A stretch of DNA of 5,269 bases from a virus (lineage: Duplodnaviria; Heunggongvirae; Uroviricota; Caudoviricetes): positions 1-5,269 of IMG/VR virus record IMGVR_UViG_2778261641_000005. One strand, 5' to 3'. The position numbers and the translations under genes were made by a program. Each line of letters begins with the position of its first letter. Position 1 is the stretch's first letter. The notes beneath the pieces were generated by a model. It had not been told where the DNA came from and ran no database searches. It was given only the letters and a program-made list of their open reading frames with translations. Positions 1 through 5,269 of this stretch are shown in pieces.

Positions 1-852
1 CTGGAAATCCTCGGTACATTCATCGCGGGTGTCTGGGTATCCAAGGTTCTGGGGGCTTTCGGAAAAATATCAGGTTTGCCGGTACCGCCATGGTTAAAAG
101 GCTGGATGGCTTATGCTGCTTATTTGTACTCCGATCGCGAAAATATTGGTGCCAGTGCGAAGTCATCCTGGGATTACACGAAACAAAATATTGGAGATTC
201 ATTGCGCTGGCTTGGCATTGATACCGATTTTGGTCGTAATCCTCATACCGTAAAAGGCGCAAATATTCAGTCAGATATTCCAGGTGCTGAGCCGGAACAA
301 CATGCACAGGCTACGAAGCGAGGAGAACGGAATAACAATCCGGGAAACCTTAATTTTGCTGGTCAGGCGGGGGCTTCTCTTGAACGACCGGGCGGGCGAT
401 TTGCCAGATTTGAAACCGCTTTTGATGGATTACGGGCTCTTGCTCGTCAGTTAATGCTGTACGCCGGACGGGGAATAAACAGTGTGGAGAAAATTATCTC
501 TACCTGGGCACCTGCGTCTGATAATAACAACACAACCGCGTATATCAGGGCTGTATCGCAACGACTGGGAGTGGATCCCCGGGCTGCCCTGAATATGAGC
601 GATCCGCAAACCATGTCAGCATTGATGAGCAGCATTATCCAGCATGAGAATGGAAGAAATATCTATTCTCGAGAGCTGATTAATAAGGCTGCCGTGGCGG
701 GAATTAGTGGCAAAGTGACAGAGGTTAACCAGCAAAATACCTACCATATTTACGGTGGCGGAGATCCGCACGCTGTCGGTAATGAGGTTGCACGTCGGCA
801 ACAGTCTGCAAATGCTCAGGTCATGCGAAGTAATCAGGTGAGGGTGGGTTAG
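1..852 (+). CDS. Probable phage tail tape measure protein, C-terminal part (5' end lies outside the window)
   Basis: Frame 1 is open from base 1 (LEILGTFIAGVWVSKVLGAF... precedes the first Met at 76) and stops at TAG 850-852. A hydrophobic segment near the start is typical of tape measure proteins. It sits immediately upstream of coupled baseplate genes. Product assignment rests on position and composition, not on a search. Confidence 0.55.
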   Translation: MEILGTFIAGVWVSKVLGAFGKISGLPVPPWLKGWMAYAAYLYSDRENIGASAKSSWDYTKQNIGDSLRWLGIDTDFGRNPHTVKGANIQSDIPGAEPEQHAQATKRGERNNNPGNLNFAGQAGASLERPGGRFARFETAFDGLRALARQLMLYAGRGINSVEKIISTWAPASDNNNTTAYIRAVSQRLGVDPRAALNMSDPQTMSALMSSIIQHENGRNIYSRELINKAAVAGISGKVTEVNQQNTYHIYGGGDPHAVGNEVARRQQSANAQVMRSNQVRVG

Positions 853-1439
853 TGGATATTCTCTCTACACTTTTTCATCAGCAGAGCAGAAAAATAGGAA
901 TGATTGTTCCCAGTGTTGTTATTTCAGAGAAGCATACAGATATGCTTGAAATAACAGAGCATCCGGTAGAGGTCGGGGCCGCTGTCGCTGATCATGCCTA
1001 TAAAAAACCGTCAGAAGTGGTGATGGAGGTTGGTTTCGCCGGTGGCGGCGCATTGCTGGATTTTGCCAGTAACCTGACGGCTACCAGCCTGCTCGGCCTG
1101 AGTCCTCAGCAGACGTATCAGGAGCTACTGGATCTGCAGGAAAGCCGTATCCCCTTCGATGTGGTAACCGGTAAACGGCTGTACAGCAACATGTTGATCC
1201 GGGCGCTGGAAGTGACGACGGACAAGACAACAGAAAACGTCCTGTCCGCCGTCCTCACCCTGAGGGAGGTCATTATCTCCCGGACACAGCAGATTACCGT
1301 CGCGGATAAAACCAACATGAAGGAAGGGGCCAGCACGTCGGCGGTACAGAACAGCGGCAACAAAACCACAAAACCTCCAGATACTTCACTGCTGAAAAGC
1401 ATCACGGGTAACGTGGCGTCATTACTGGGGGGCGGCTAA
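852..1439 (+). CDS. Phage tail/baseplate-associated protein of unassigned family (195 aa)
   Basis: GTG start overlaps the upstream stop (TAGTG); purine-rich GAGGGTGGG lies just upstream. Long ORF with coding-like composition, co-oriented and coupled to neighbours. No family recognised with certainty. Confidence 0.7.
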   Translation: MDILSTLFHQQSRKIGMIVPSVVISEKHTDMLEITEHPVEVGAAVADHAYKKPSEVVMEVGFAGGGALLDFASNLTATSLLGLSPQQTYQELLDLQESRIPFDVVTGKRLYSNMLIRALEVTTDKTTENVLSAVLTLREVIISRTQQITVADKTNMKEGASTSAVQNSGNKTTKPPDTSLLKSITGNVASLLGGG

Positions 1440-1741
1440 TGACAATTCAGGAAATTCCGCTGACAGCGGACAACCAGCAGTTCAGCATCGTCCTGGGTGG
1501 TGTCACCTGGCGGATTAGCATCATATGGCGCGATCTGTACTGGATTATGGACCTGCAGAACGACAGAGGGGAGCCGGTAATCTCCGGTATTCCTCTCGTC
1601 ACTGGCGCTGACCTGCTGGCGCAGTACGCCTGTATGGGGCTTGGTTTTAAGCTGGTGGTGGTCTGTGATGACAACACACAGGATTACCCCACAAAAACTG
1701 ACCTGGGCGGTCGCAGCCATTTACTGGTATCAACGGAGTAA
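1439..1741 (+). CDS. Small phage tail assembly/baseplate protein of unassigned family (100 aa)
   Basis: ATG overlaps the upstream stop (TAATG), indicating translational coupling. The ORF fills the gap between neighbours exactly. Confidence 0.65.
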   Translation: MTIQEIPLTADNQQFSIVLGGVTWRISIIWRDLYWIMDLQNDRGEPVISGIPLVTGADLLAQYACMGLGFKLVVVCDDNTQDYPTKTDLGGRSHLLVSTE

Positions 1742-1743
1742 GC

Positions 1744-2808
1744 ATGTCACAGAACTGGATGAGACATTTCGAGCTGCAGCTTGTGGACGGGAACGGTCAG
1801 GGAATTGAGCTAAGTGATTTTAAAGTCACCTTTACGATCGACTGGTTCAACATCAGCAGCGCGTCCCGGGTAGGGACTATCAAAATTTATAACCTCTCGG
1901 CAGATACTGTGAACCGAATCACCGGGCAGGAGTTTTCGAAAGTGCGTCTGATTGCCGGTTACGACGGTATCGCGCCGGAGGTGTCGGCAAGCGACGTCGG
2001 GACCGTGCGGGAAGTTGACGCGGCGGACGTGGGTCAGAGTGATGGCCGCAATTACGGGCTGATTTTCAGCGGAGAAATTCGCTACTCGGTCACAGGAAAA
2101 GACAGCCCTATTGATTCCTATGTCCTGATTCAGGCAGCAGATACGGATCTGGCATTTGCCACCAGTATAACCTCGCAGACGCTGGCGGCCGGTTACACGG
2201 TCGCAGATGTGAACCGTGCGCTGATGAAAGACTTTGAGGCCAAAGGCGCGACCGAAGGACTGACGCCTGAAATGCCTGCTACCGTATTCCCTCGAGGGCG
2301 GGTGCTGTTCGGCATGACACGGCATCTTATGGATAACGTGGCCGGACAATGTGGCGCAACATGGCAATTTGTGGACGGTCAGCGCCAGATGGTGGCGAAT
2401 AACGAGTATGTTCACGACGCGATTGTGCTCAACAGAGCCACCGGGCTTATCGGCATGCCGCAGCAGACTATCGGCAACGGTGTAAACGTCCGCGCTCTTA
2501 TTAATCCGAACATCCGGGTTAACGGGCTTATTCAGCTGGATCAGGCTTCCGTGTACCGCACCGCGCTGTCGAACAATGATATTGCGATGGCTGGTGGGCA
2601 GATCACCGACCAGAACACGGACGGAAATATCACGCTCAGCGGCACCACAGCACAACCTGCCAGCATCGCAACGGATGGCGTTTATATTGTGCGCGGGATT
2701 ATGTACACTGGCGATACAAGGGGCCAGGCGTGGTACATGGATATGATGTGCGAAGCGCGTGGCGCGGCGGATCTTCAAAGTCAAGGAGCAATGAATCGGT
2801 GGGGATAA
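1744..2808 (+). CDS. Putative baseplate hub-like protein (354 aa; gp27/gpD/Mu gp44-like position)
   Basis: GGAG at 1734-1737 lies 6 nt upstream of ATG 1744. The ORF starts 2 nt after the upstream stop. Size and position (after tape measure, before spike) fit a hub protein in a contractile-tail baseplate module. Family not confirmed. Confidence 0.75.
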   Translation: MSQNWMRHFELQLVDGNGQGIELSDFKVTFTIDWFNISSASRVGTIKIYNLSADTVNRITGQEFSKVRLIAGYDGIAPEVSASDVGTVREVDAADVGQSDGRNYGLIFSGEIRYSVTGKDSPIDSYVLIQAADTDLAFATSITSQTLAAGYTVADVNRALMKDFEAKGATEGLTPEMPATVFPRGRVLFGMTRHLMDNVAGQCGATWQFVDGQRQMVANNEYVHDAIVLNRATGLIGMPQQTIGNGVNVRALINPNIRVNGLIQLDQASVYRTALSNNDIAMAGGQITDQNTDGNITLSGTTAQPASIATDGVYIVRGIMYTGDTRGQAWYMDMMCEARGAADLQSQGAMNRWG

Positions 2809-2810
2809 GA

Positions 2811-3275
2811 TTGAATAAGAAAGCCATTTTTATTGCAATAAGTTTACTTGTTCCGATGTCGGGATTATCCGCTCCTGGGAAGTATGAAAAAATGGCTGTT
2901 GATTTAATGGATCAGCAAAAGTTTACGCAGTGGCAACATTACGCCTCTGCTACTCCTTTTTTCGCTATGAATGGTCGCAGATTCGCCATGACCATTGATG
3001 ATTTCGCGGATATAGTCAGCAACTCCTTTCAAGAATGCGAAGACCTGGATGCCTACACCAATCGGAAAGGAGCTACGGATGATTGTAAGTCCTATGTTTA
3101 CAAAGGCATAAAGGAGTGGGTAAACCTCTCTCAAGATAAGTCTGTTAGCGATACAGCATGGAAAATGGGCCAGCGCTATGCCTTCAACACACGTAATCCT
3201 ATTGCCCATAAAAACGCATGGGATTTCAATGGGATGGCGGCCGGTATTCGCGTTGCTAAATCTCAAGGTTATTAA
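2811..3275 (+). CDS. Secreted/periplasmic protein of unknown function with N-terminal signal peptide (cargo gene)
   Basis: Proposed TTG start at 2811 gives MNKKAIFIAISLLVPMSGLSAPGKYEK..., a classic positively charged n-region plus hydrophobic core; GGTGGGG lies 7-13 nt upstream. The open frame reaches back to GTG 2730, but that would overlap the hub gene by 78 nt and bury the signal peptide. The mature part has two Cys (QECEDL...DDCKSY) and no recognised motif. The gene is AT-rich relative to the flanking structural genes. Confidence 0.6.
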   Translation: MNKKAIFIAISLLVPMSGLSAPGKYEKMAVDLMDQQKFTQWQHYASATPFFAMNGRRFAMTIDDFADIVSNSFQECEDLDAYTNRKGATDDCKSYVYKGIKEWVNLSQDKSVSDTAWKMGQRYAFNTRNPIAHKNAWDFNGMAAGIRVAKSQGY

Positions 3276-3344
3276 GTCATGGATGCACCGAAAATCATCG
3301 GTTCTTTCCCGTGTAAAAAAGTGGCTGGGCGATGATTTTTGACG

Positions 3345-3360
3345 TCCATAATATTATGGA
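3345..3360. promoter_or_regulatory. Perfect 16-bp palindrome TCCATAATATTATGGA (candidate operator)
   Basis: The sequence is exactly self-complementary. It lies in the AT-rich intergenic region immediately 3' of a TTGACG hexamer (3339-3344). Confidence 0.5.
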
Positions 3361-3437
3361 TGAACTGTTGCCAATTGCGCTAATTTTAACAAAATAATAC
3401 TGGTTAACGCATTTTTTGAACCATCTGTACACAGTAG

Positions 3438-3466
3438 TTGTCTATACTTTACCTTAAAGGTAAACT
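3438..3466 (+). promoter_or_regulatory. Candidate sigma70-like promoter overlapped by a perfect 17-bp palindrome TTTACCTTAAAGGTAAA (3448-3464)
   Basis: TTGTCT (3438-3443), 17-bp spacer, TAAACT (3461-3466); alternatively TATACT at 3443-3448 as the -10. The palindrome has 8-bp arms around a central A and overlaps the -10/+1 area, about 35-60 nt upstream of the ORF starting at 3501. Hexamer matches are imperfect. Confidence 0.35.
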
Positions 3467-3500
3467 CTGCGCTCCACTGATGTTCACTATGGGAGGGGAT

Positions 3501-3740
3501 ATGAGGAAAATCGTTAATCGTTACTTAGCCGCTGCCGGTAGTGTTATGGACATTATGCCGACTACAGATTACTGGCAATATGCTGCTTCTGGATCTGATT
3601 GTCGGGCAATAAGAAGTGATGTTAAAGTCATTGCAAGTGACATGAACAGAGTTATCAGGTATGAGTTCAAAACCCCGCAAGCAGGCGGCCGTTCTCAAAA
3701 AGCATCAGGAAAACAAAGCGTCGCAAAAAGCCGTTCCTGA
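3501..3740 (+). CDS. Small basic hypothetical protein (79 aa); possible regulator or partner of the downstream membrane protein
   Basis: Strong Shine-Dalgarno GGGAGGGG (3491-3498) sits 2-4 nt before ATG 3501. The frame is open from TTG 3438, but the RBS favours 3501. The C-terminus is Lys/Arg/Ser-rich. The last 80 nt overlap the next ORF in another frame, so reality is uncertain. Confidence 0.45.
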   Translation: MRKIVNRYLAAAGSVMDIMPTTDYWQYAASGSDCRAIRSDVKVIASDMNRVIRYEFKTPQAGGRSQKASGKQSVAKSRS

Positions 3741-4233
3741 TTCGGATGGTATCGACGAAGATATTGATTCCTCGGAATATGATGAGTCTCAGGAAGTAGT
3801 GGAAAAGCTGTCTGCAGTTGCCAACCTTGATCCTGAGCTAAAATCGAAGTTAACACCTGAACTTCTTGAGAGAGTTTCTAAGAACCCGAAGGTTATTGCC
3901 ATGTTTCAGCAGGAGTCTTTTCAGGGACCACTCCCACCTCCTGCTATGCTCTTACAATATAATCAAATATTACCCGGCGGCGCTGAGAGAATTTTCAGGC
4001 TAACCGAAAAAGAGCAAGAGCATAGGCATAAGACGCAAAGTGATGCATTACTTGGTGCGGTTTCACGCGACAAACGTGGGCAATGGATGGGATTTTGCAT
4101 TGCAATGGTAGTGCTTATAATGGCTGCGTTTTTTGCTAATCGCGGTAACACTTGGTTCGCAGGTACTCTTGCTACTTTAGATCTCGTAGGATTAACTACA
4201 GTGTTTGTTTATGGTAGGAAGAAACCTAAATAA
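3661..4233 (+). CDS. DUF2335-like predicted membrane protein (190 aa)
   Basis: Contains FQGPLPPPAMLLQYNQILPGGAERIFRLTEKEQEHRHK, which I recall as the hallmark of the DUF2335 family (motif recall, not searched). This is followed by two predicted transmembrane helices (WMGFCIAMVVLIMAAFFA and FAGTLATLDLVGLTTVFVY) and a basic tail GRKKPK. The N-terminus is a charged low-complexity region. ATG 3661 is the only start in the open frame, and its own SD is weak (AGGT). Confidence 0.7.
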   Translation: MSSKPRKQAAVLKKHQENKASQKAVPDSDGIDEDIDSSEYDESQEVVEKLSAVANLDPELKSKLTPELLERVSKNPKVIAMFQQESFQGPLPPPAMLLQYNQILPGGAERIFRLTEKEQEHRHKTQSDALLGAVSRDKRGQWMGFCIAMVVLIMAAFFANRGNTWFAGTLATLDLVGLTTVFVYGRKKPK

Positions 4234-4248
4234 TCCATACATCCTTTC

Positions 4249-4276
4249 AAACCCGCTTCGGCGGGTTTTTTGCTTT
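4249..4276 (+). terminator. Rho-independent terminator
   Basis: Stem AAACCCGC (4249-4256), loop TTCG (4257-4260), stem GCGGGTTT (4261-4268), running into a T tract (4266-4271) then GCTTT. It lies 16 nt after the TAA stop at 4231-4233. Confidence 0.8.
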
Positions 4277-4290
4277 CTGGAGCCTACTAA

Positions 4291-5043
4291 ATGGCCGTAT
4301 CTGACCAAACCCGCAGCGGCGACCTTGCCGAAACATTCAAATCTGAACGGGAAACCACAAAGAACCAGATCCGCGTCGCTTTGCCTGGCATTATTCAGTC
4401 ATTCGATCCTGACGCGGTTACGGCGGTTGTGCAGCCTGCTATCCGTTACGTTGAGATCGATAACGATGGTAACCGGGTGACAAAACCTTACCCGCTGCTG
4501 GTGGATGTTCCCGTGGTATTCCCAACGGCCGGGGGAGTTACTTTAACGTTGCCGGTGAGCCCCGGCGATGAGTGCGAACTTAAGTTTCAAGACCGCTGTA
4601 TTGATTTCTTCTGGCAAAACGGTGGAGTGCAGGAACCTGTCGACGACCGCATACATGACCTGTCCGACGCCACCTGCTCAGTGGGTCAAATATCTCAGCC
4701 CAACAAAATTAAGAATGTCAGCACCACGTCGGCGCAGCTTCGAAGTGTTGATGGAAGTACGTACATCGACCTTAATCCGGATACGCAGAAAATTAAAATC
4801 GTAGCGCCTGGCGGTCTGGATGTAGTTACCCCGCTGGCCGACTTCTCGGCGAAAGTAACCATTCACGGGCTACTGTCCTGGCTGGGTGGAATGGTGGGGT
4901 CTGTTGCTTCTGGAGTTGCATCCAAAATCACCGGCGCTGTCGAGTTTATCGGTACCGTTAAAGCTAACGGCAAGTCAATTGATGATACGCACACGCACGG
5001 CGGGGTTCAGCGAGGCGGAAGCAACACAGACGGGGTGAACTGA
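4291..5043 (+). CDS. Baseplate central spike / baseplate assembly protein V-like (250 aa)
   Basis: GGAG at 4279-4282 lies 8 nt before the ATG. The N-terminal region resembles gpV/Gp138-type spike proteins. The C-terminus has a Gly-rich region ending in DDTHTHGGVQRGGSNTDG, with a His-x-His motif like the apex of P2 gpV-type spikes. Position is directly upstream of the next baseplate gene. Confidence 0.85.
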   Translation: MAVSDQTRSGDLAETFKSERETTKNQIRVALPGIIQSFDPDAVTAVVQPAIRYVEIDNDGNRVTKPYPLLVDVPVVFPTAGGVTLTLPVSPGDECELKFQDRCIDFFWQNGGVQEPVDDRIHDLSDATCSVGQISQPNKIKNVSTTSAQLRSVDGSTYIDLNPDTQKIKIVAPGGLDVVTPLADFSAKVTIHGLLSWLGGMVGSVASGVASKITGAVEFIGTVKANGKSIDDTHTHGGVQRGGSNTDGVN

Positions 5044-5269
5044 TGCGATACAGACGCGAAGACGCCGACGGTGATTACACCTTTGGCAGCGGCGATGATA
5101 CCTGGCTGATTAACTCACCGGAGGCCGTGGCGCAGGCGGTAAAAACGCGATTCGAATTGTGGTATGGGCAATGGTTTCTCGACACCACCGAGGGGACTCC
5201 GTGGATCCAGTCCGTACTCGGTAAGCAGAAGCCGGAAACCTACAACCTGGCGATCCGTAAGCGCATCCT
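5043..5269 (+). CDS. Phage baseplate protein (gpW/gp25-like position), N-terminal part (3' end outside the window)
   Basis: ATG overlaps the spike stop (TGATG). My own translation gives MRYRREDADGDYTFGSGDDTWLINSPEAVAQAVKTRFELWYGQWFLDTTEGTPWIQSVLGKQKPETYNLAIRKRI with no stop to the window end. It is absent from the ORF track only because it is unterminated. Family assigned by position only. Confidence 0.6.
   Translation, partial: MRYRREDADGDYTFGSGDDTWLINSPEAVAQAVKTRFELWYGQWFLDTTEGTPWIQSVLGKQKPETYNLAIRKRI

Follow-up and report, generated by a model that had tools for sequence, protein, structure and literature searches.

What are low-GC genes without structural relatives doing between the baseplate hub and the central spike of a temperate phage, and do they belong together? 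The question is raised by IMG/VR virus record IMGVR_UViG_2778261641_000005, of which positions 1 to 5,269 were analysed (5,269 nucleotides, nt; hereafter the window). This stretch comes from the late tail operon of an Escherichia coli prophage, a SEN34-like temperate myovirus, and its hub and spike genes flank a block (2809-4290) of low guanine-plus-cytosine (GC) content. The block holds gene A, whose product carries a signal peptide, the small gene B, and gene C, whose product is a DUF2335 membrane protein. An earlier interpretation made from the letters alone (the sequence-only reading) saw here a moron or accessory hotspot with its own promoter and terminator, formed by one island at an unusual position. 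The hotspot and its non-structural genes have stood up to analysis, while the private terminator, the single island and the unusual position have not, and the best promoter match is no better than chance. The region is almost certainly a two-slot accessory-gene (moron) hotspot, with three short conserved anchors between which cassettes are swapped. The overall account, which adds to this hotspot a B-C membrane cassette and envelope-level protection expressed from the prophage, is held with moderate confidence.

The evidence for the hotspot comes from 80 viral contigs, fetched by way of the hub protein (536 relatives exist), and from annotated loci, which together gave the hub-spike interval in 86 loci. 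In related loci the hub is 96-99% identical at the amino acid (aa) level, falling to 83% in phage SEN34. The gap that follows it measures 402-1897 bp in all 86 loci and has a GC content of 0.37-0.48, against 0.52-0.58 in the flanks. Near-identical hubs are thus followed by varying low-GC cargo throughout, as expected of the hotspot proposed by the sequence-only reading. Clustering of the open reading frames (ORFs) resolved 24 architectures with about 15 alternative gene sets in the second slot, so that the same block is not a fixture of all close relatives. Among named phages, the vB_EcoM-689R2 group, Yersinia phage YP3 and Salmonella phage SEN34 (genus Brunovirus) come nearest, and relatives of the prophage region also occur in Klebsiella, Salmonella, Yersinia and Prodigiosinella. 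The flanks are present in 353 of 5,426 complete E. coli genomes, of which only 16 cover at least 80% of the window. No description of the hub-spike site was found in the literature on SEN34 and Brunovirus.

The first position, slot A, is invariably occupied by a gene for a signal-peptide protein or lipoprotein, which starts 1-3 nt past the hub stop codon. This is C0, encoding a signal-peptide protein of 113-118 aa, in 72 loci, gene A in 10, and C29, encoding a lipoprotein of 241 aa, in 5. The second position, slot B, is occupied by genes B plus C in 11 loci and by other cassettes elsewhere. The two slots assort independently, as C0 and gene A are each found with the B-C, the YafO and the HEPN-like cassettes. 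The block therefore consists of two separately exchanged cassettes between three anchors, and not of the one island first supposed. Of the complete E. coli genomes, 9 carry gene A and 16 the B-C cassette, and the A-B-C combination of the window is found only in KSC64 (NZ_CP018840). The minimal state, with hub, C0 and spike in a gap of 402-404 bp and an empty slot B, is represented only by loci L059 and L063. Because even these retain C0, slot A is filled in all 86 loci. Absence from relatives, by which morons are recognised, thus applies to slot B and fails for slot A, and the direct adjacency of hub and spike that had been predicted for relatives without cargo does not occur in any of the 86 loci.

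The three anchors are the 3' end of the hub gene, a tail of about 45 nt left by C0 (within 3279-3335), and the terminator together with the spike ribosome-binding site (4247-4290). The junction between the slots corresponds to the last ~45 nt of C0 (ATGGAYGCRCCGAAAATCATCGG...TGTAAAAA) and is conserved in nearly all related loci. It closes the intact gene in C0 loci and trails gene A in gene-A loci, which indicates that gene A replaced the body of C0. Divergence by cargo type begins directly past TGTAAAAA(A/G)GT, and the junction marks the crossover point between the two cassette slots. The right anchor is equally independent of the cargo. Its terminator is a stem-loop at 4249-4268 with a UUCG loop and a T-run reaching 4271 (-12.8 kcal/mol), and it ends 20 nt before the spike ATG. 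The segment 4247-4290 recurs ahead of the spike in 63 E. coli genomes, which otherwise show no match to the B-C region (differing cargo was confirmed for the annotated ones), and phages of Klebsiella and Prodigiosinella have an equivalent hairpin before their spike gene. A strong terminator, another hallmark of morons, is therefore present as the sequence-only reading had it, but it is an element of the backbone or site, conserved whatever the cargo, and not the property of the cassette. A match to the Rfam family rsmX at 4191-4271, lying over this hairpin, was below threshold (27 bits, where the gathering score is 56; E 0.038) and was taken as chance.

The base composition of the block agrees with an accessory origin. 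Its exact GC content is 0.430, compared with 0.551 in the hub gene and 0.536 in the spike gene, so that the drop estimated by eye in the sequence-only reading proved accurate. A sliding-window profile runs at 0.40-0.46 over positions 2800-4300 and at 0.51-0.57 over 1000-2800 and 4300-5200, with the caveat that bases 1-1000 of the window are likewise low (0.46-0.50). GC at third codon positions (GC3) is 0.39-0.47 in the three block genes and 0.57-0.66 in the structural genes, and the deviant composition of morons is thus found by both measures. The spike is itself mosaic, with 50-100% aa identity to the window spike among loci with a near-identical hub, which places the hotspot at the border of a conserved and a variable module. 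The structural genes upstream of the block abut or overlap in the ORF list (Table 1), as their tight coupling had been described. The low-GC bases 1-1000 comprise the 3' part of the tape-measure/lytic transglycosylase gene, where relatives vary and many matches start only at base 285.

Table 1. Features of the window, with positions counted from its first nucleotide (TM, transmembrane helix; RBS, ribosome-binding site)
Feature	Position	Strand	Basis or remark
End of tape-measure/lytic transglycosylase protein	76-852		Annotation of relatives
Dit-like baseplate protein	852-1439		Family match
Pam3_gp18-type plug	1439-1741		Family match
Baseplate hub; left flank and left recombination anchor	1744-2808	+	phrog_196 'baseplate hub', E 2.3e-88; weak E217_GP41 match
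Gene A, 154-aa protein with N-terminal signal peptide	2811-3275	+	ORF list; 465-nt gene annotated by PGAP in L003 and L004
C0 3'-end remnant, 19 codons (MDAPKIIGSFPCKKVAGR*); junction of slots A and B	3279-3335	+	
Perfect palindrome TCCATAATATTATGGA	3345-3360		Candidate protein-binding site; not conserved in the 81%-identical cassette L099
Sigma-70-like promoter candidate, TTGTCT, 17 nt, TAAACT	3438-3466	+	8/12 matches
Perfect palindrome TTTACCTTAAAGGTAAA, 8-bp arms	3448-3464		Within spacer and -10 of the promoter candidate; conserved in L099
Gene B, 79-aa ORF	3501-3740	+	Coordinates corrected; phrog_26284, E 2e-12
Gene C, 190-aa DUF2335 inner-membrane protein	3661-4233	+	Pfam PF10097, E 1.8e-18
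DUF2335 helix of C (residues 92-141)	3934-4083		
TM1 of C (residues ~142-159)	4084-4137		Continues the DUF2335 helix
TM2 of C (residues ~166-185)	4156-4215		
Right anchor: intrinsic terminator and spike RBS GGAG (4279-4282)	4247-4290	+	
Central spike; right flank	4291-5043	+	PF18352 (N-terminal spike domain), E 3.7e-36, and Apex motif

Do genes B and C form a unit within slot B? In all Enterobacterales loci examined, the DUF2335 gene is immediately preceded by a B-like ORF that overlaps or abuts it, and the contexts include Citrobacter, Proteus, Providencia, Prodigiosinella, two metagenomic siphoviruses, Klebsiella phage RAH1 and the Uetakevirus phages BUCT711 and EC.W1-9. The small gene does not occur on its own in Xenorhabdus, where the B motif M..YF..IGSILDIMP.NDY instead starts the DUF2335 protein itself (P0028-P0030, P0035; hidden Markov model, HMM, E 4.7e-9). 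Gene fusion is a standard sign of two proteins that work together physically. Together, the constant upstream placement of B and the Xenorhabdus fusion identify B and C as a mobile two-gene cassette of temperate-phage accessory regions, and there is good reason to regard the two as a functional pair. No description of a small protein paired with DUF2335 was found in the literature. The fusion gene itself (L108 5001-5450; also L109) stands right after a cI/cro pair and beside a NADAR-domain gene, in an apparent prophage remnant.

The cassette has several other homes. In a Proteus prophage it lies ~340 nt downstream of a cI-type repressor gene (HTH_3 plus Peptidase_S24), in Citrobacter beside gtrABC, in the siphoviruses with the tail chaperone or tube gene on one side and the tape-measure gene on the other, and in the Uetakevirus (epsilon15-like) phages beside the tailspike. 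These are sites that typically hold lysogen-expressed genes. The SEN34-like prophage of Prodigiosinella has an A of only 53% identity and yet keeps the order hub, A, B, C, spike. In a Providencia rettgeri prophage (L110 2236-4319) a colicin/pyocin-type DNase and immunity gene are found just upstream of B-C, between the tail tube and tape-measure genes.

Gene B is a real gene, as far as conservation and selection can tell, and one that standard annotation passes over. It is preceded by the Shine-Dalgarno sequence GGGAGGGG at 3491-3498, and its 3' 80 nt overlap gene C. A word-indexed homologue search of a collection of 5.8 billion called-gene proteins returned no match, because the ORF of gene B had never been called. 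The family was recovered by exhaustive HMMER search of 1.84 billion representative proteins, which gave 11 relatives of 64-76 aa, and by tblastn and HMM scans of the fetched loci. PGAP leaves B unannotated in the E. coli relatives examined (L001, L002, L088), and its homologue is missing from the GenBank records of Klebsiella phages RAH1 and BUCT711, two of the three deposited phage genomes (L118 3209-3478, L119 3134-3484). Compared with the 81%-identical cassette L099, the ratio of nonsynonymous to synonymous substitution rates (dN/dS) is 0.44 over the first 53 codons, whereas in the tail that overlaps C it is 1.8 in the B frame and 0.6 in the C frame. This pattern locates the working part of the protein in about the first 53-64 residues, and only these of its 79 residues appear to be functional. 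Synonymous divergence from L099 is ~0.2 for B and the 90 nt upstream of it and ~1.06 for C, a step that suggests either a recombination joint inside the cassette or an extra constraint on its 5' part.

Protein C is the best defined of the three. Its match to PF10097 reaches 66.6 bits against a curated gathering cut-off of 25, with residues 92-141 spanning the full 50-position profile, and the DUF2335-like membrane protein named in the sequence-only reading is thereby established. It also matches the membrane-protein family phrog_3996 (E 1.2e-46), filed under 'moron, auxiliary metabolic gene and host takeover', and has 45 homologues. An AlphaFold2 model (mean predicted local distance difference test, pLDDT, 76) places a disordered, charged N-terminus and short helices before a long helix (107-160), a six-residue loop and a second helix (164-186). 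The long helix bears the invariant motif PLPxP...PGxAER...E...RGQW and continues without a break as the first membrane helix. From the basic residues that precede TM1 and follow TM2, both termini are predicted to be cytoplasmic. Strong purifying selection is evident from a dN/dS of 0.095 against L099. An alternative GTG start at residue 47 was considered and is unnecessary, since homologues share long, variable, acidic N-termini and the overlap with or abutment to B. A fold search with C returned only generic helical hairpins. DUF2335 genes are carried by phages of hosts as varied as Streptococcus, Leptospira, Porphyromonas and Pseudomonas, and no function for the family was found in the literature. 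Papers that call 'DUF2335' a phospholipase toxin of type VI effectors probably contain a slip for DUF2235 (Tle1), and so say nothing on protein C.

Gene A, in slot A, starts with TTG 2 nt past the hub stop codon, with a GGGGA Shine-Dalgarno sequence ahead. Its product begins with a classical signal peptide (MNKKAIFIAISLLVPMSGLSA/PGK) and is predicted to be periplasmic. All 15 homologues are from Enterobacterales, are named 'hypothetical' and keep cysteines C76 and C92 invariant, and the gene lies directly 3' of the hub gene in every context retrieved (Klebsiella, Prodigiosinella). The AlphaFold2 model (pLDDT 84, predicted template modelling score 0.76) comprises a helical domain, a small sheet and the two invariant cysteines, a predicted fold that would fit a periplasmic protein. 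Protein A matched nothing in Pfam, PHROG, PADLOC or NCBIfam, and fold searches with the block proteins gave nothing decisive. That A might inhibit a peptidoglycan hydrolase in the periplasm is kept as a lead only. A link of gene A to a particular spike or tape-measure allele was rejected, because the spikes that accompany it are 50-100% identical and the tape-measure proteins occur with and without an SLT match. An antisense ORF of 120 aa (2904-3266) was set aside, as the protein-level conservation of gene A favours the plus strand.

Searches with all three proteins support the view that the cargo is neither structural nor part of a named defence system. No structural family was matched in PHROG or Pfam, and all three genes are replaced by unrelated ones beside a 97-99% identical hub, a behaviour foreign to virion components and in keeping with the non-structural role first proposed. 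The sequence-only reading had also been unable to name a matching defence system, and HMM searches of the three proteins against Pfam, PADLOC-DB v2.0 (no match at E up to 1) and NCBIfam came to the same result.

How might such a cassette work? B would bind the cytoplasmic part of C, and the pair would act as one inner-membrane complex. In the lysogen, B and C would be transcribed from a regulated promoter of their own in the 225-nt, palindrome-bearing gap between A and B, and the backbone terminator would end this transcript, sparing the spike and downstream tail genes. During lytic growth, Q-antiterminated late transcription would pass the terminator; this read-through is proposed because SEN34 encodes a lambda-type, Q-like antiterminator ahead of its late genes for lysis and structure. 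The regulatory region of SEN34 has been described as lambda-like (PMC5261728). A scheme of this sort is the one classically associated with morons (PMC3594210). At the inner membrane the pair could prevent the phage genome from entering, in the manner of HK97 gp15 and P22 SieA, or, when triggered, collapse the membrane, like lambda RexAB, and A would act in the periplasm. As C is predicted to be nearly all cytoplasmic or membrane-embedded, a triggered effector or an entry block at the inner membrane is favoured over binding of a tail in the periplasm.

The palindromes of the A-B gap speak for the proposed regulation. TCCATAATATTATGGA and TTTACCTTAAAGGTAAA are the only perfect palindromes with arms of at least 8 bp in the entire window, both fall in this gap, and in 0 of 300 dinucleotide shuffles of the gap did two such palindromes arise, so that the operator-like palindromes pointed out near the candidate promoter are real and non-random. 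Other B-C cassettes have different palindromes upstream of B.

Several observations weigh against the proposed account. The 8/12 score of the sigma-70-like candidate was equalled by 138 of 300 shuffles, and is therefore at chance level; the promoter claimed for the block in the sequence-only reading has this sequence as its best match and gains no support from it. A consensus promoter scan of the window did not list the match at 3438-3466, and promoter assignment by consensus was abandoned, being no better than chance here and for most other cassettes. Some other slot-B cassettes start just 5-44 nt past the junction, a distance at which they can have no promoter of their own, so not all cargo of the site is autonomous. 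Gene A lacks a private promoter and is translationally coupled to the hub, a late structural gene, and its expression may be confined to the late phase, during lytic growth. Only about six residues of C are predicted on the periplasmic side, which tells against direct contact with an incoming tail. Finally, none of the three proteins matched NCBIfam or PDB sequences.

Envelope-level protection against other phages is the single most likely function of the cargo, a tentative assignment, well short of an even chance, that draws on location and analogy. It is rated above other functions because of the lysogen-type locations of the cassette. The more specific proposal, that B and its DUF2335 partner make up a two-component anti-phage system of temperate phages, so far unrecognised, that works at the inner membrane by exclusion or abortive infection and whose small subunit gene callers miss, is possible and rather doubtful. 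As a subject for experiment the cassette is a reasonable choice, but it does not amount to evidence for a new defence system. The cargo may instead serve the bacterium, as lysogenic-conversion or host-fitness genes whose envelope proteins, like lambda Bor and Lom, would give stress tolerance, colonisation, or resistance to colicins or serum. A secreted A and a membrane-bound C would suit this function, as would the PHROG category of the C family and the neighbourhood of gtrABC and of a colicin DNase/immunity pair in other prophages. The occurrence of DUF2335 in phages of very different hosts and niches, however, fits a phage-directed role better, and the high turnover at the site, with its toxin-antitoxin-like and HEPN-like alternatives, resembles hotspots of phage conflict; a host-fitness role is accordingly judged unlikely.

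An addiction module, in which C would be a membrane-damaging toxin and B its labile antidote, stabilising cassette or prophage, is improbable. It has in its favour the overlap of a small upstream gene with a larger downstream one and the palindrome in the putative promoter, both as in type II operons, the YafO toxin pair that occupies slot B in other phages, and the two-helix hairpin of C, which recalls small membrane toxins and holins. Yet the resemblance to a type II module is confined to this layout, as neither B nor C matched a toxin or antitoxin family in Pfam or NCBIfam. B has no recognisable DNA-binding fold or family, C, unlike simple membrane toxins, has a large conserved cytoplasmic domain, and the Xenorhabdus fusion, which fits subunits of one machine and not antagonists, argues against a simple relation of toxin and antidote. 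Service to the lytic cycle of the phage itself has been weighed mainly for gene A, which could be a late periplasmic helper that controls peptidoglycan cutting by the tape-measure protein or shields progeny from debris, with slot A as an essential but variable gene. A slot that is always filled and promoter-less speaks for such a helper, but that three unrelated families fill it speaks against, and this role appears very improbable.

Known systems offer partial parallels. Lambda RexA/RexB is likewise a soluble-plus-membrane prophage pair, and the Proteus cassette, in its place behind the repressor gene, stands in the rexAB position. RexB has four membrane helices and RexA ~280 aa, whereas C has two predicted helices and B ~60 aa, and no RexA/RexB homology was found for the cassette in Pfam, PADLOC or PDB sequences. 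Mycobacteriophages possess soluble-plus-membrane pairs analogous to RexA/RexB, for example Sbash gp30/gp31. There is a likeness in arrangement to HK97 gene 15 and the moron described by Juhala and Hendrix, a low-GC insert between conserved tail genes of a temperate phage with lambdoid regulation, encoding a small inner-membrane protein and ending in a terminator (PMC3594210). In HK97, gene 15 is flanked by the genes for the tail chaperone and the tape measure (PMC3594210), and the siphovirus B-C cassettes sit at the equivalent site upstream of the tape-measure gene. By contrast, its product, an inner-membrane superinfection exclusion protein, shares no sequence similarity with the proteins of the block, which is made up of B plus C and a slot for a secreted protein, and here the terminator is a shared backbone element.

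The hotspots of P2-like phages (old/tin, Z/fun) resemble the hub-spike site in offering, amid conserved phage genes, a fixed place to many alternative low-GC cargos, including toxin-like pairs (PMC9122126; bioRxiv 10.1101/2024.10.15.618418). They differ in that they hold anti-phage systems and belong to another phage lineage; at the hub-spike site a defence role of the cargo is hypothetical. Z/fun itself is located among tail genes (bioRxiv 10.1101/2024.10.15.618418), and with HK97 gene 15 it provides a precedent for the baseplate-operon position, which the sequence-only reading had called unusual and which is not so for morons. Tail operons are already familiar as places for hotspots and morons, with examples in HK97 gene 15, in P2 Z/fun and in the defence hotspots of P2/P4 (PMC9122126).

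The other contents of slot B bear on what else the site may hold. Besides B plus C, they comprise a protein of ~245-275 aa followed by one of 123-153 aa with a weak HEPN match, a 192-aa protein paired with a YafO toxin (Pfam E 4e-17), two kinds of membrane protein (one with DUF4282, the other weakly PycTM-like) and several secreted proteins. YafO is the sole cargo of the hub-spike site that reaches a curated family threshold. The commonest cargo, found in ~35 of the 86 loci (for example L004, L017, L026, L032 and L033), encodes a protein of 243-276 aa with a weak TPR match and then the HEPN-like protein (Pfam E 0.002; PADLOC HEPN_IX E 0.003-0.009), in at least six divergent versions. From its sequences this pair looks like an uncharacterised toxin-type pair. 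In L005, L080 and L083 slot B holds single membrane proteins of 176-187 aa that weakly resemble the Pycsar effector PycTM (PADLOC E 2.6e-4), with no cyclase gene nearby.

For the biology of these phages, the three conserved anchors make the cargo of the site easy to harvest computationally, and its flanks are already present in the 353 complete E. coli genomes. The site offers about 15 uncharacterised gene sets, including toxin-like pairs of the kind that proved to be defence systems in the P2/P4 hotspots. The conserved gene of 64-79 aa upstream of C exposes an annotation gap, being missed by standard annotation, and through it the DUF2335 family now has an obligate small partner, a fusion pointing to physical interaction, and a consistent accessory location of lysogen type. 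If the B-DUF2335 pair were indeed a two-component anti-phage system, the hub-spike site would be a new reservoir of such systems, among them the ~250-aa plus HEPN-like pairs, comparable to the hotspots of P2 and P4.

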